The position numbers and the translations under genes were made by a program. Below are positions 4,762 to 20,838 of a stretch of DNA of 64,000 nt, piece by piece; positions within the stretch are counted from its first letter, which is position 1; every line of letters begins with the position of its first letter. Source of the stretch: Octopus vulgaris (lineage: Eukaryota). The notes under the pieces were generated by a model. That model made no database searches, was not told the origin of the DNA, and saw nothing but the letters and a program-made list of their open reading frames with translations. The stretch is taken from contig OX597839.1 in the NCBI GenBank assembly GCA_951406725.2, forward strand, positions 32,364,001 through 32,428,000, written 5' to 3'.

Positions 4762-4799
4762 TCTTTCTGTTGAAGAGCGTAGGCTCGAAACGTAAAAGA
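4762..4799 (+). ncRNA. minimal Type I hammerhead motif, A6U core variant, in a Penelope-like pLTR module (4744-4897)
   Basis: UCUUU-CUGUUGA-A-GAGC-GUAG-GCUC-GAA-ACGU-A-AAAGA gives stem I of 5 bp, stem II of 4 bp, palindromic ACGU stem III and a GUA site. The module ends at (TA)n. Confidence 0.7.
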
Positions 4800-4964
4800 C
4801 TTGCTTTATTTCTATTCCTGAGCGCCATACTAATACAATTGTTTGTTTGTACTCCACCTGCCTTCGTCTTTTATTTATTTGCATAAAGCTTCCCGTTATA
4901 TATATATATATATATATATATATATATATATGCTTCTTAATCCTTTTTGCCCTTTGTGCAGCAA

Positions 4965-5229
4965 AGGGCCGGTTTCCCGATTTCCTTGGCGAATAGGTTC
5001 CCCACCTGGACGGGACGCCGGTCCGTCGCAGGTGAGCTGCAAGATGCAGGAGGAAAGAGTGAGAGAAAGTTGTGGCGAAAGAGTCAGCAGAAGTTTCGCC
5101 ATTACATATTATGCCGGAGCCGCGTGGAGCTTAGGTGTTTCGCTCATAAACACACACATCGCCCGGTCTGAGATTCGAACCCGCGATCCCTCGAATATGC
5201 TGCTCTAACCACTAGGCCATGTGCCTCCA
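4965..5229 (-). mobile_element. tRNA-derived SINE (family C)
   Basis: Homologous to 56-349. Confidence 0.85.
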
Positions 5230-5920
5230 AATATATATATATATATATATATATATATATGTGTGTGTGTGTGTGTGTGTGTGTGTGTATACACACACAC
5301 ACACACATATATATATATATGCACATATATATATATATATATATATATACACATACTTGGACGTGCACACATACATAAACGCACATACATGCATACACAC
5401 ACACACACTTACACACTTACACACACACACACACAGAGCAAGACACAAGATTTGATGTCGCAATCAATCATGCAACAGATACATCGTATCGATCAGCGAG
5501 GAGGTCAAACATAAATATAATTACAGCAGAGAAAGATAAATATTCTACAACCAATATTAAGACATTCCGCACCAACGATTTCCTGAAAGAATTTAGTGTA
5601 AACGTACTTAAATCATCTGAAATCTTCCATTTGCGATTGTCATCATATATATACTGAGTTAGCTTCATTAGTTTCGAATTTAATGCCCGGAAGAGAAGAT
5701 CGGGTCGTCTGCCAACGATTACGTGTGACCTGTTGTATTTTGAATGACTGGAACTTGCTTTAACTACATTTATATCTATTTTGTGAATTTCTTAACGAAG
5801 TTTTTTGGGGAGTAATTCTTAGAAATTGGTTTAAATTGCTTATGTGTACGAAGTATTATGCTAAGGTTGTATCAAATATTTTTGTTGTTGTCATCGAACC
5901 AAAGGATTTTTATTGCATGA

Positions 5921-6314
5921 CTAGCAATCGCCCGGCGTTGCTCGGGTTTGTAAGGGAAATAACTATATAAGCATTTTTAGAGAGTTATAGCCAAAAAGTA
6001 GCAAAAAAATGCATTAAAAATGGAAAAAAAATTATGGTAATTTTTTTTTTAAATCGTTGACTCATCGTTGACATTTTTAGAGAGTTACTTCCCTTATATA
6101 ATAGCGAAAAAATGCATTAAAATGGGAAAAAATGATGGTAAATTTTTTTAAAATCGTAGACTCATCGTAGACGCGCGTTAATACCAGAAGGGCTCGATAT
6201 GAATCACGACTATAAGATACCCGGTTTTGGTTGAACTGCACCGCAAAATGTGGGAGTAGTTAGGAATCTAAATCAGAGTAGACAGACACACAACTTCACT
6301 TTTATATATAAAGA
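5921..6314 (-). mobile_element. non-autonomous Helitron
   Basis: Minus strand has 5' TCTTTATATATAAAAG and a 3' GC-rich hairpin (CCCGAGCAACGCCGGG) followed by CTAG, inserted between A and T. It has an internal ~90-bp tandem duplication. A second copy lies at 26468-26765. Confidence 0.85.
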
Positions 6315-6679
6315 TTGCCATTCCGATTCTGTGTGTGTGTGTGTGTGTGTGTGTGTGTGTGTTCTCGTTCTTTATTTTATTTAATTTTTGTTGTTTCTTT
6401 CAAGCACTGGACTGAAATTATGCCTACACACACACACACACAAACGACGGGTCGACGGGCTCCTTTTCAGCTTTTCAGTTTCCATCTACCAAATTAACTC
6501 ACAAGGCTTTGGCCGGCCCGAGGTTATAATCGAAGACACCTACTCACGTAGTGAGACTGAACCCGGAACCATGTGGTTGGGAAGCAAACTTCTTACCAAT
6601 CACCTAATTTATTTTATCTTATTAAGTAACCAGGGGTGGGTGACAAGAATCGAGGACTGTCCATAACAATCCAAAATGG

Positions 6680-7010
6680 AATTACATAAAAAGTGTGCAA
6701 AGAAGAAAAATAACATAAACAAGAAAAACAAAAAAATTCCCACAGAATCATCCGCGGTCAGTCGTCGCGACTCTGAGTTTTCGTGGCTTTGGCATGACTT
6801 GATAAGATTTCTCCATTCGGATTGGCTTTTCGTTTGAGTTTGCCGTCTTCCTTTCTGCAATATCTTTGAATGTCAGTAAAGGTGTCCCCTTGTTTCATTT
6901 CTTCTCGTATAGTTCGGAGTAAAGGAATTGTCTGGGGGAGTCTGTTGTTGTCCATTCTGTGTCCGTCGCCCAACCAACGTAAACCTATCAAACACCGTCT
7001 CCGGGTCATC
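6680..7010 (-). mobile_element. degenerate RTE-clade LINE RT C-terminal fragment
   Basis: Translation LRWLGDGHRMDNNRLP matches the RTE motif LRWLGHVxRMxxxRLPK; frameshifted. Confidence 0.65.
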
Positions 7011-7104
7011 TCCAATCTTCAAATTTAGTGAGAGAGGAACAACAATATGATGAGCGATAGGGCTATACGTCAATTGTAAAATGCTCCCATCTGCAATAAG
7101 CATA

Positions 7105-18020: not shown

Positions 18021-18034
18021 TGTATATATATATG

Positions 18035-18231
18035 CACGAAAGGGTGCTGAAAGGGTCTGGCTGTAGGCCCAACCTTCCGAGTTCTTTTACAGGGCGTAGA
18101 AAAGCTGAAGGGCCACTGAAATAAGTGTGTGAATCTGAGAGAGGAATATGGTCAATAAAATCCTAATCAACTGATCCTCATCCTATATTTTCTTTTACCC
18201 AAAGCCGAAATCTTTTCAGCATCCCTTCGTA
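18035..18231 (+). mobile_element. mariner-derived MITE
   Basis: TIRs CGAAAGGGTGCTGAAAG and CTTTTCAGCATCCCTTCGTA. The interior encodes a decayed mariner C-terminus (EKLKGH*NKCVNLREEY). Confidence 0.75.
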
Positions 18232-18644
18232 GTGTTTAAACAACCACCATATTTAGTGGTATTACTAGTTTTTTTTTTTATATACGGAGCAAACGCAGAA
18301 AAGATTAACACAAACGCATTCATTTTACTTGCTCCTAAATACATCATTTCACCATTATGATGGTTTGGAAATTCTGCTTTGGCTGTTCCAAGTGTAATTG
18401 GCTGCTTAACTACAATGGATCACCAGGGAACACTTTATTGCATTCGGTTACTGAGAGTTTTAATTGCTCGGTATTTCATAACTAGAAATACTACGAAGTA
18501 TAGGACGTTACTTAGCCATTAGACTGGAAGCAGACGATAATCTATGAGGAGATCTAAGCACATCAATAGCAGTAATACATCCATTTGTGTACACACAAGG
18601 TATTGTGTGTGTGTGTGTGTGTGTGTGTGTGTGTGTGTGTGTGT

Positions 18645-19030
18645 GCAGGAGTGGCTGTGTGGTAAGTAGCTTGCTTATCAACCACATGGTTCTGGTTTCA
18701 GTCCCACTGTATGGCACCTTGGGCAAGTGTCATCTACTACAGCCTCAGGCAAACCAAAGCCTTGAGAGTGGATTTGGAAGACGGAAACTGAAAGAAGCCC
18801 ATATATATATATATGTGTGTGTGTGTGTGTGTGTGTGTGTGTGTATGTGTGTTTATCCCCGCCACTATCGCTTGACAATCGATGTTGCTGCATTTACGTG
18901 CCCGTAACCTAGCGATTCGGCAAAAGGGAACGATAGAATAAGTACTAGGCTTACAAAGAATAAGTCCAAGGGTCGATTTGTTCGACTGAAGACGGTGCTC
19001 CTCATGACCACAGTCAACTTATGACTGAAC
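18645..19030 (+). mobile_element. family B SINE
   Basis: Homologous to 8352-8785, with an internal microsatellite. Confidence 0.85.
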
Positions 19031-19319
19031 CAAACCACCTGTCTTCGTCTTTTGTTTTGTTTTTTTAAAAATTTAAATTTATATATATATGTGTGTGTGT
19101 GTGTGTGTATATACACACACACTCTCTCTCTCTCTCTCTCTCTCTCACACACACACACACACACACACACAGGGTAAGCCAGACGTCACGCAAAAATACG
19201 CTCAATACGTGTGTAAGTCACGCACAAAATGAATTCACCACGCTCCGGAATTGTCAAAGACATGCTTTAGTTTTTCTGAAATTGAATGAAATAAATAGAA
19301 TGATGATGAATACACACAC

Positions 19320-20135
19320 TCACTTGGGGTGGGTGGGGGGTAGTCGATTACATCGCCACCAGTACTCTGCTGGTACTTATTTTATCGACCCCGAAAGGAT
19401 GAAAGGCAAAGTCGACGACGGCGGAGTTTGAACTCAGAACATAAAGACGGACGAAATGCCGCTAAGCATTTTGCCCGGCGTGTTTACGATTCTGCCATCT
19501 GGTCACCTTAATAATAATAATAATAATAATAATAATAATAATAATAATAATAATAATCCTTTCTACTAAAGGCACAAGGTCTGAAATTTGGTGGGAGGGA
19601 ACTAGTTGATTACATCGACCCCAGTGTTTCGTTGGTACTTGATCTATCGATCCCAAAAGACGAAAGGCAAAGTCGACATCAGTGGAATTTGAATTCAGAA
19701 TGTAAAGATGGACGAAATGCCGCTAAGCATTTCTCTAATAATAATAATAATAATAATAATAATAATAATAATAGTAATAATAATTACGGAGATGTACTTG
19801 CATAGCAAGTGACTTGATCTGAGATCGTGTGCTGAAACAAAACCTGTTTGATCGTGGAAGGTGTTTATAAACCGTTGTAAAAATACACAAAATATACCTA
19901 TTTCTTTACTACCCACAAGGGGCTAAACATAGAGGGGACAAACAAGGACAGAGAAACGGATTAAATAGATTACATCGACCCCAGTGCGTAACTGGTACTT
20001 AAATTTATCGACCCCGAAAGGATGAAAGGCAAAGTCGACATCGGTGGAATTTGAACTCAGAACGTAACGGCAGACGAAATACGGCTACGCATTTCGCCCC
20101 GGCGTGCTAACGTTTCTGCCAGCTCGCCCGCCTTA
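19320..20135 (-). mobile_element. cluster of three family A SINEs separated by (AAT)n
   Basis: Copies at ~19320-19510, 19555-19735 and 19899-20135; the last carries the new AAGAAATA tail. Confidence 0.85.
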
Positions 20136-20802
20136 ACCTTAATATGAATAAAATGTCAACTGTTTTGGTGCATGACTTTTGGCCCACCTTGCGCGCGCAC
20201 ACGCACACACACACGGATTCTGTCTAATGACGTAATGACGTAGATATGTGCACTAAGTGCTCGGGTTAGCTTGCCACCAAAGCTCCTACTTGAACTGCGA
20301 CTAAAACAAAAGTAGTTTTGTAGCTGGCAAGCAACGAACGGCTATAAGTGGTCCGTCATTGAGCGGGAACGCACAGACAGGACACGTGGTATCACTTCCG
20401 AGCATGGCGTTTATAATTCAGGCATCATTGCAGAACTTTTTAGACTAAATAAAAGATTAAGAAATAATGCATATAGACATACACGGCAGGCTTCCTTATA
20501 GTTTCTTTATACCAAATTTATTTACGAAGCATTGGTCGATTGATGGCATAATAGAAAACACTTGCACAATGTGACGCAGAGTAGGACCGAACCCGAGAGA
20601 ACGTTGTTGGGAATGGAACTTCTGAATCACTCAACCATACTGAAATGGTGGACATGCAAGATATATATATATATATATATGTGTGTGTGTGTGTGTGTGT
20701 GTGTGTGTATAGGGAGAGTTTACGAAAAAAAACAAAAGACGAAGACAGGAGGTGTACAAAACAAACAGATGTATTAGTATAACGCTCAGGAATAGAAAAA
20801 GT

Positions 20803-20838
20803 CTTTTACGTTTCGAGCCTACACTCTTCTACAGAAAG
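20803..20838 (-). ncRNA. minimal Type I hammerhead motif, A6U variant (module 20711-20850)
   Basis: Minus strand reads CUUU-CUGUAGA-A-GAGU-GUAG-GCUC-GAA-ACGU-A-AAAG. Same family as 4762. Confidence 0.7.

Follow-up and report, generated by a model that had tools for sequence, protein, structure and literature searches.

A U at core position 6 is fixed in the minimal hammerhead motif of an amplifying Penelope-like element family of Octopus vulgaris

We analyzed a 64-kb window of the Octopus vulgaris genome (64,000 nucleotides (nt); assembly GCA_951406725.2, contig OX597839.1, positions 32,364,001 to 32,428,000) and focused on two copies of a small hammerhead ribozyme motif that have U instead of A at position 6 of the core consensus CUGANGA. 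An earlier note on this DNA had proposed that the change, A6U, is fixed in an amplifying family. The genome bore this out: U6 is present in 96.3% of 16,881 exact matches and in 73 of 76 copies sampled by their flanks, and the motif belongs to elements with long open reading frames (ORFs), which are Penelope-like elements (PLEs). The opposite outcome, a family consensus of A6 from which the two window copies had decayed independently, is excluded by the genome-wide counts.

U6 in the window and across the genome

Both window sites are embedded among microsatellites, on opposite strands and 16 kb apart. They share one layout: after the core come an additional A, stem II (4 bp, with GUAG as its loop), GAA, an ACGU palindrome, the cleavage-site A and the 3' strand that closes stem I. 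Copy 1 (4762..4799, plus strand, core CUGUUGA; CTGTTGA at 4767-4773) pairs UCUUU with AAAGA in stem I (4762-4766 and 4795-4799), carries U6 at 4770 and the extra A at 4774, and continues through stem II (GAGC-GUAG-GCUC, 4775-4786), GAA and the palindrome (4790-4793) to H17, an A at 4794, after which the cut is predicted. Copy 2 (20803..20838, minus strand, core CUGUAGA; CTGTAGA at 20834-20828) has a 4-bp stem I, U6 at 20831, a CpG-type C-to-T change in stem II and a predicted cut after 20807. The U at position 6 and the extra A after A9, as first described, were confirmed in both copies. The stems had been called intact; I and II do form in both copies, whereas stem III is a loop-less ACGU palindrome, which cannot close within a monomer, so a second copy is needed.

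The two copies are 83% identical across 138 nt and were assigned to different subfamilies. Copy 1 lies in a pseudo-long terminal repeat (pLTR) stub, the 5'-truncated end of an element of the U7/A17 subfamily (4745..4897, plus strand, approximate boundaries), which sits between microsatellites and ends in (TA)n. Copy 2 lies in a second 5'-truncated stub, of the A7/A17 subfamily (20708..20850, minus strand). The stubs contain no ORF. A shifted register, reading U6-U7-G8-A9-A-G-A as U3-U4-G5-A6-N7-G8-A9, was rejected: only U7 subfamilies allow it, and it disrupts stem I and gives a mismatched stem II.

We searched the whole genome (2.8 Gb, 227 contigs) with a 27-nt pattern and obtained 16,881 exact matches, of which 16,253 have U6, 188 have A6 and 440 have C or G at this position. 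Reversed-pattern controls gave 0 matches genome-wide, and because this compares with 16,253 for the real pattern, the window motifs are not due to chance. A pattern with a mutant G5 gave 477 exact matches. The rate of non-U at position 6 (3.7%) is close to that of G5 mutants (2.9%), so U6 is about as constant as G5, and the non-U6 rate is near that of single-copy decay at an invariant site. The features of a minimal type I hammerhead are present (stems I and II, GAAA, a palindromic helix III, an NUH site and the extra nucleotide after A9). The core consensus CUGANGA is not, given U6 in 16,253 of the 16,881 matches, and for this reason we file the family as a hammerhead variant rather than as a consensus member.

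To avoid selecting on the core, we also sampled copies through a downstream flank motif (22,956 matches). The first 100 listed places gave 97 distinct copies; 21 of these lacked a readable core because of truncation or indels, and the other 76 were scored, with 2 of the 76 rows out of register by an indel. Position 6 was T in 73 copies and A in 3. N7 was T in 33, A in 23, C in 14 and G in 6, and H17 was A in 60, T in 14, C in 1 and G in 1. The same sample bears on stem II, where a C-G pair in one window copy and a U-G pair in the other had been noted as keeping the stem paired, and could be read as covariation. The site is a CpG with C in 75 of the 76 copies, the C-to-T change is present in 1 of 76, and the matching G-to-A is present in 9; we therefore reject covariation and attribute the difference to CpG-type decay in copy 2 alone.

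When any loop II was allowed, the genome held 20,550 U6 matches and 5,947 canonical A6 matches. U6 is almost confined to the 4-nt loop, as only 1 of 65 examined copies with a 3-nt loop has it. We also looked for U6 arising independently with other stems II; no such case appeared among the first 100 of 591 matches, which were mostly decayed copies of this family. A metagenome scan with the U6 pattern gave 10 hits; none had the family flanks and stem I pairing was weak or absent, and we read all ten as chance. At least half of the sampled sequence words occur in 20 sequencing runs (12 studies, seven organism codes that are not necessarily distinct species); three of the runs may be the source of the assembly, and no RNA run is among those listed. 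The listed runs are all stored as contigs, a form that does not reveal RNA ends. One contig from organism E covers 91 nt across the motif with zero differences.

The parent element and conservation of the motif

The flanks of some copies encode a GIY-YIG fragment, and a search with this fragment gave 150 scored matches, many of them in long open frames. The motif lay downstream in 28 of the 30 endonuclease-hit loci returned, always with U6, and where regions were chosen for their long frames the U6 motif followed the ORF in 20 of 20. At locus L119 an open frame of 1047 amino acids (aa) is followed by the U6 motif. It contains an RVT_1 domain (residues 415-604, E 1.3e-7, above the cut-off) and a weak GIY-YIG match (residues 835-868, E 0.007, below the cut-off) in which the IYC...YIG and CCHH residues are visible, and the endonuclease is preceded by a C-x4-C-x2-C linker common to Neptune and Nematis elements. 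Three loci (L120, L122 and L136) are tandem elements flanked on each side by the motif, the two motifs being separated by 4384-4535 nt. The family has a reverse transcriptase (RT) followed by GIY-YIG in a single ORF and hammerhead-bearing direct pLTR repeats in tandem, as in endonuclease-bearing (EN+) PLEs, together with the CX2-5CxxC linker and microsatellite targets of Neptune, its copies ending in (TA)n. Young copies are less than 1% diverged at second codon positions (L122 vs L119: 0.003). Taken together, we conclude that the window sites represent truncated ends of a PLE that encodes an endonuclease, is autonomous and was amplified recently; it appears Neptune-like by its linker and target features. 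A non-LTR retrozyme was rejected, as no tandem array spans either hammerhead and the repeating unit is a coding element of 4.4-4.5 kb.

Two further features of the loci were recorded. At L119 (5150-5524) and in other ORFs of the U6 lineage, the frame continues 100-250 codons past the usual endonuclease end without an early stop, crossing a low-complexity, C/T-rich tract whose length varies; in a sister lineage, described below, the stop comes five residues after that end. At L043, L053/L054 and L196, two neighboring family ends are inverted relative to each other, an arrangement described for PLE insertions.

We clustered 203 of 229 copies into ten groups by their flanks alone. The main column test used the six U6 groups with at least 11 members each (165 copies), leaving aside two groups of 2 and 3 copies and two skewed by A6-targeted sampling. 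Across the six subfamily consensuses, 2 of 36 hammerhead columns vary, compared with 32 of 75 ungapped flank columns (Fisher p 4.6e-5); across all ten clusters the counts are 7 of 36 and 46 of 92 (p 0.0015). The two variable hammerhead columns are N7 and H17, the positions that the hammerhead consensus leaves free, and C3, G8, G12 and U16.1 are conserved. G17 is rare, being found in 2 of 222 copies on the U6 side and 2 of 65 in the sister lineage. Of the clustered copies, 99 had been chosen through the motif or by likeness to copy 1; the remaining 104 have U6 in 103 cases.

We estimated synonymous divergence as fourfold-degenerate divergence from L119 minus second-position divergence, the latter as a proxy for decay, and obtained 0.09-0.14 for the C7 subfamily, 0.26 (192 sites) and 0.32 (38 sites) for the G7 subfamily, and 0.64 (54 sites) for an old U6 copy. 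At a divergence of 0.26, the young and G7 consensuses should differ by neutral expectation at 6.4 of 29 constrained sites; none differs (P 7.5e-4). From this pattern of substitution we conclude that the motif was under purifying selection with U6 in place.

Most of the listed canonical A6 matches belong to the sister lineage, which has a 3-nt loop II and intact elements of at least 1008 aa with 62% protein identity to L119. Some of these intact elements carry the core CCGACGA (U4C). The U4C pattern has 10,380 exact genome matches, compared with 5,947 for the canonical core, and A6 is kept in 95 of the first 100 listed. The sister lineage has thus fixed a second change in the U-turn. Stem I pair 4 is C-G in 177 of 222 U6-side copies and G-C or G-U in 57 of 65 sister copies, a difference that is one compensatory event. 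Among sister elements, L284-L287 have a 3' region of about 2.7 kb or more, mainly degenerate (AC)n/(ACAT)n repeats; these resemble one another from copy to copy, and one of their frames stays open for more than 600 codons. L285-L287 are three intact young U4C copies with a U-U mismatch in stem I.

The order of events on the U6 side was approached through an old subfamily with the GUAG loop, part of whose copies have A6. In a tree of the endonuclease (20 rows, 399 columns), the old A6 subfamily groups with an old U6 copy, and a single clade for all U6 copies is not rejected (approximately unbiased test, p-AU 0.096). The tree may reflect either a single A-to-U change with a basal A6 subfamily, or an early change followed by one reversion.

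A proposed slowed ribozyme and its alternatives

The earlier note had offered two options, a tolerated variant and a replication signal that is not a catalyst, and these are the two readings that remain live. We favor the first in a specific form, at about even odds (roughly 0.5): the motif would be an attenuated, dimer-dependent and probably protein-assisted self-cleaving ribozyme. We give it this weight because the free sites are exactly N7 and H17, G17 has never been amplified, and no amplified double mutant of the U-turn was seen. A tandem transcript would bring together two motifs, spaced about 4.4-4.5 kb apart, by base pairing of their ACGU palindromes, with slow cutting after GU(A/U). 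U6 would lower the rate by giving up the A6 contacts and by pairing with A15.1, which is predicted to favor an inactive monomer rod. Most transcripts would then escape cutting and could serve the element's RT as full-length template; in the one PLE studied in vitro, the RT start site is downstream of the cut. Published cases are compatible with a weakened but useful core. A natural A6C hammerhead retains low activity (PMC3088659, PMC7151607), being slow in Mg2+ and rescued by Mn2+ (PMC7151607), U4C is weaker in vitro yet supports viroid infectivity (as cited in PMC3088659), and an Anolis PLE hammerhead is reported to cleave only with the element's protein (PMC11167929).

In the predicted rod, U4-G5-U6 pair with A15.1-C15.2-G16.2 of the palindrome strand. 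In four natural pairs of copies matched at N7, the predicted probability of G5-C15.2 pairing rises between A6 and U6 from 0.10 to 0.98, 0.45 to 0.86, 0.00 to 0.34 and 0.01 to 0.53. The rod is unstable in prediction with longer flanks, where the probability of stem II is 0.37, 0.00 and 0.46 in three U6 copies. Both lineages conserve a YGAGCG block (4818-4825 in the window, and equivalents) some 20-40 nt downstream of the predicted cut. The block complements the 3' strand of stem II; pairing between the two has a predicted probability of 0.00-0.35 and is unsupported.

Several observations weigh against attenuated cleavage. The column test includes many copies picked by the motif, which leans it towards invariance, and the sole flank-based sample is the 76 copies. 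Retention of U6 concerns a single site and does not by itself indicate selection for U6. Pairwise mutagenesis of another hammerhead gave low activity for all mutants of the CUGA region except a C-G swap, and second mutations did not rescue them (PMC9901934). In a fast hammerhead, A6C lowers the rate to 3.55e-6 from 0.3 per min at 0.3 mM Mg2+ (PMC7151607), and minimal PLE hammerheads are slow already (PMC4209133). Catalytic mutants of the Anolis PLE left insertion in vitro unaffected, and no reads ended at the cut site (PMC11167929). Within the family, three of the four intact sister elements examined with an upstream motif combine a stem I mismatch with U4C, and two independent copies of a small old U6 subfamily (L229 and L230; G000:C1:3779215 and 4092822) have UUCG as the loop and, in stem II, a U-U mismatch. 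These mismatches suggest relaxed demands on the motif.

The strongest alternative is that the motif no longer cuts usefully and is kept as a non-catalytic RNA element, either a hairpin bound by the RT-endonuclease or a dimerization signal, with its U-turn decaying independently in two lineages. We consider this a serious competitor, though it falls somewhat short of even odds, because the U-turn is eroded in two lineages (A6U and U4C), intact U4C copies are mismatched in stem I, and stem II is conserved in sequence, with no covariation, across lineages that are 62% identical in protein. The predicted rod, towards which U6 shifts all four natural pairs, fits such a role, as do the very high copy number that Naiad PLEs reach without canonical hammerheads (PMC8557442) and the dispensability of cleavage in vitro (PMC11167929). 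Such a signal does not readily account for free sites that are exactly N7 and H17, when U7 would pair in the rod, or for the conservation of C3 and U16.1, which are unpaired in it; nor is the rod stable in prediction with longer flanks. U4C and A6U also occur together in 5 of the first 100 listed matches, about 2.5% of U6 copies, a figure that matches single-copy T-to-C decay; no amplified double was seen.

A dead relic, in which a master element with an inactivating A6U was amplified with too little time for more decay, seems improbable. PLE hammerheads may merely hitchhike, as suggested in PMC8557442, and our sample covers few source lineages, with two of the divergence estimates based on 38 and 54 sites. 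This reading is already disfavored, since U6 occurs in six or more subfamilies that between them use every N7 letter, stand 0.13 to 0.3 or more synonymous changes per site apart and have motifs whose consensus is otherwise unchanged. Full activity, with A6U compensated by a contact specific to the lineage (the GUAG loop II or the downstream YGAGCG block) or by a metal such as Mn2+, is highly improbable: the near confinement of U6 to the 4-nt loop, the mostly decayed family copies recovered with other stems II and the Mn2+ rescue of A6C (PMC7151607) speak for it, but the old A6 subfamily shares both the loop and the downstream block, and no second-site rescue of the CUGA region was obtained (PMC9901934).

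A broader proposal joins the attenuated ribozyme and the RT-bound signal, and we advance it as doubtful. Two autonomous PLE lineages would have independently fixed changes that weaken the U-turn (A6U and U4C), now carried by most exact copies, through selection for a throttled, protein-gated cut or for an RT-binding signal, and the ribozyme would be changing from a catalyst into an RNA-protein signal.

The retention of hammerheads by PLEs is puzzling: the ribozymes act slowly in vitro, can be dispensed with in the one reconstituted system, and Naiads lack them. This family offers a natural means of asking whether PLEs depend on cutting their RNA. One genome holds matched natural sets, with A6, A6U and U4C cores in related elements and A6 copies inside U6 subfamilies, and long open frames are seen in both the A6U and the sister lineage; cleavage and mobility could therefore be compared without designed mutants. 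Should A6U prove to cleave, the descriptors used in searches are narrower than the natural core, and large families go unnoticed; the canonical core accounts for 5,947 of about 36,900 exact matches to the three patterns. Should it prove inactive, the conserved fold serves some other purpose.

Other features of the window, and known systems

Besides the two U6 stubs, the window contains a short 3' fragment of the U6 family with no hammerhead (19034..19062, plus strand) and three copies of the sister lineage, all on the minus strand. One is a stub with a 3-nt loop II, a canonical CUGACGA core starting at 13116 and CpG-type decay (12982..13193). The other two are hammerheads with the U4C core CCGACGA, at 14625..14659 (C3 at 14655) and 54642..54676 (C3 at 54672). 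A 184-bp repeat family occupies about 17 places in the window, including 34775-38420, 50236-51355 and 55680-57374, both in tandem arrays (2-4.5 units) and as copies dispersed over the two strands; a fragment of this repeat adjoins the 5' end of the stub at 20850. A GC-richer island lies at 4960-5230 (plus strand), in which ARAGORN found no tRNA. The sequence near 5165-5195 resembles what we take to be a tRNA B-box, and the island is possibly a short interspersed element. An Rfam scan of the window gave 265 rows; the 150 listed included no hammerhead and consisted mostly of microRNA matches driven by microsatellites.

Small hammerhead variants associated with PLEs, with a reduced stem III and cleaving as dimers, have reportedly been described by Lunse et al. 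(RNA Biol 14:1499, cited in PMC6765202). Our literature searches listed no report of a fixed A6U hammerhead, although Lunse et al. could list position-6 variants or this family. In a repeat annotation of Octopus vulgaris, a term search of the main text found no mention of ribozymes (PMC13282606).

The Anolis Poseidon (PAc) hammerhead likewise lies in a pLTR upstream of the ORF of tandem elements; this one was shown to work with help from protein and to be unnecessary for insertion in vitro, and the part of the report considered mentions no change at position 6 (PMC11167929). The hammerhead of phage Bcep176 (PMC3088659, PMC7151607) has a natural position-6 change as well, with low but detectable activity. 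It is a single phage sequence with C6 that cleaves without a partner, whereas the octopus motif has U6, is of the dimer type and belongs to an amplifying retroelement. The element itself resembles the EN+ PLEs Neptune and Nematis (PMC8557442) in its C-terminal GIY-YIG, C-x4-C-x2-C linker, DKG and YIDD motifs, (TA)n targets and tandem arrangement, and differs from them in the frame of the U6 lineage, which runs past the usual end through a pyrimidine-rich tract.

The closest relatives of the motif are the minimal hammerhead ribozymes in the pLTRs of metazoan PLEs (PMC4209133). These are also of type I, with a short stem I, an extra nucleotide lying between position 9 and position 10.1, a G10.1-C11.1 pair, a loop-less palindromic helix III and a U-rich 5' flank; they act as dimers and occur mostly as single truncated copies, with two motifs flanking full elements. 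All 56 motifs in Fig. S3 of that study have A6, in a set biased by a descriptor that required the core, and the core variant described there is a compensated U3-A8, unlike the uncompensated A6U fixed here in about 20,000 exact copies. We conclude that minimal hammerheads of PLEs are known, and that the uncompensated, fixed A6U appears to be the new part.

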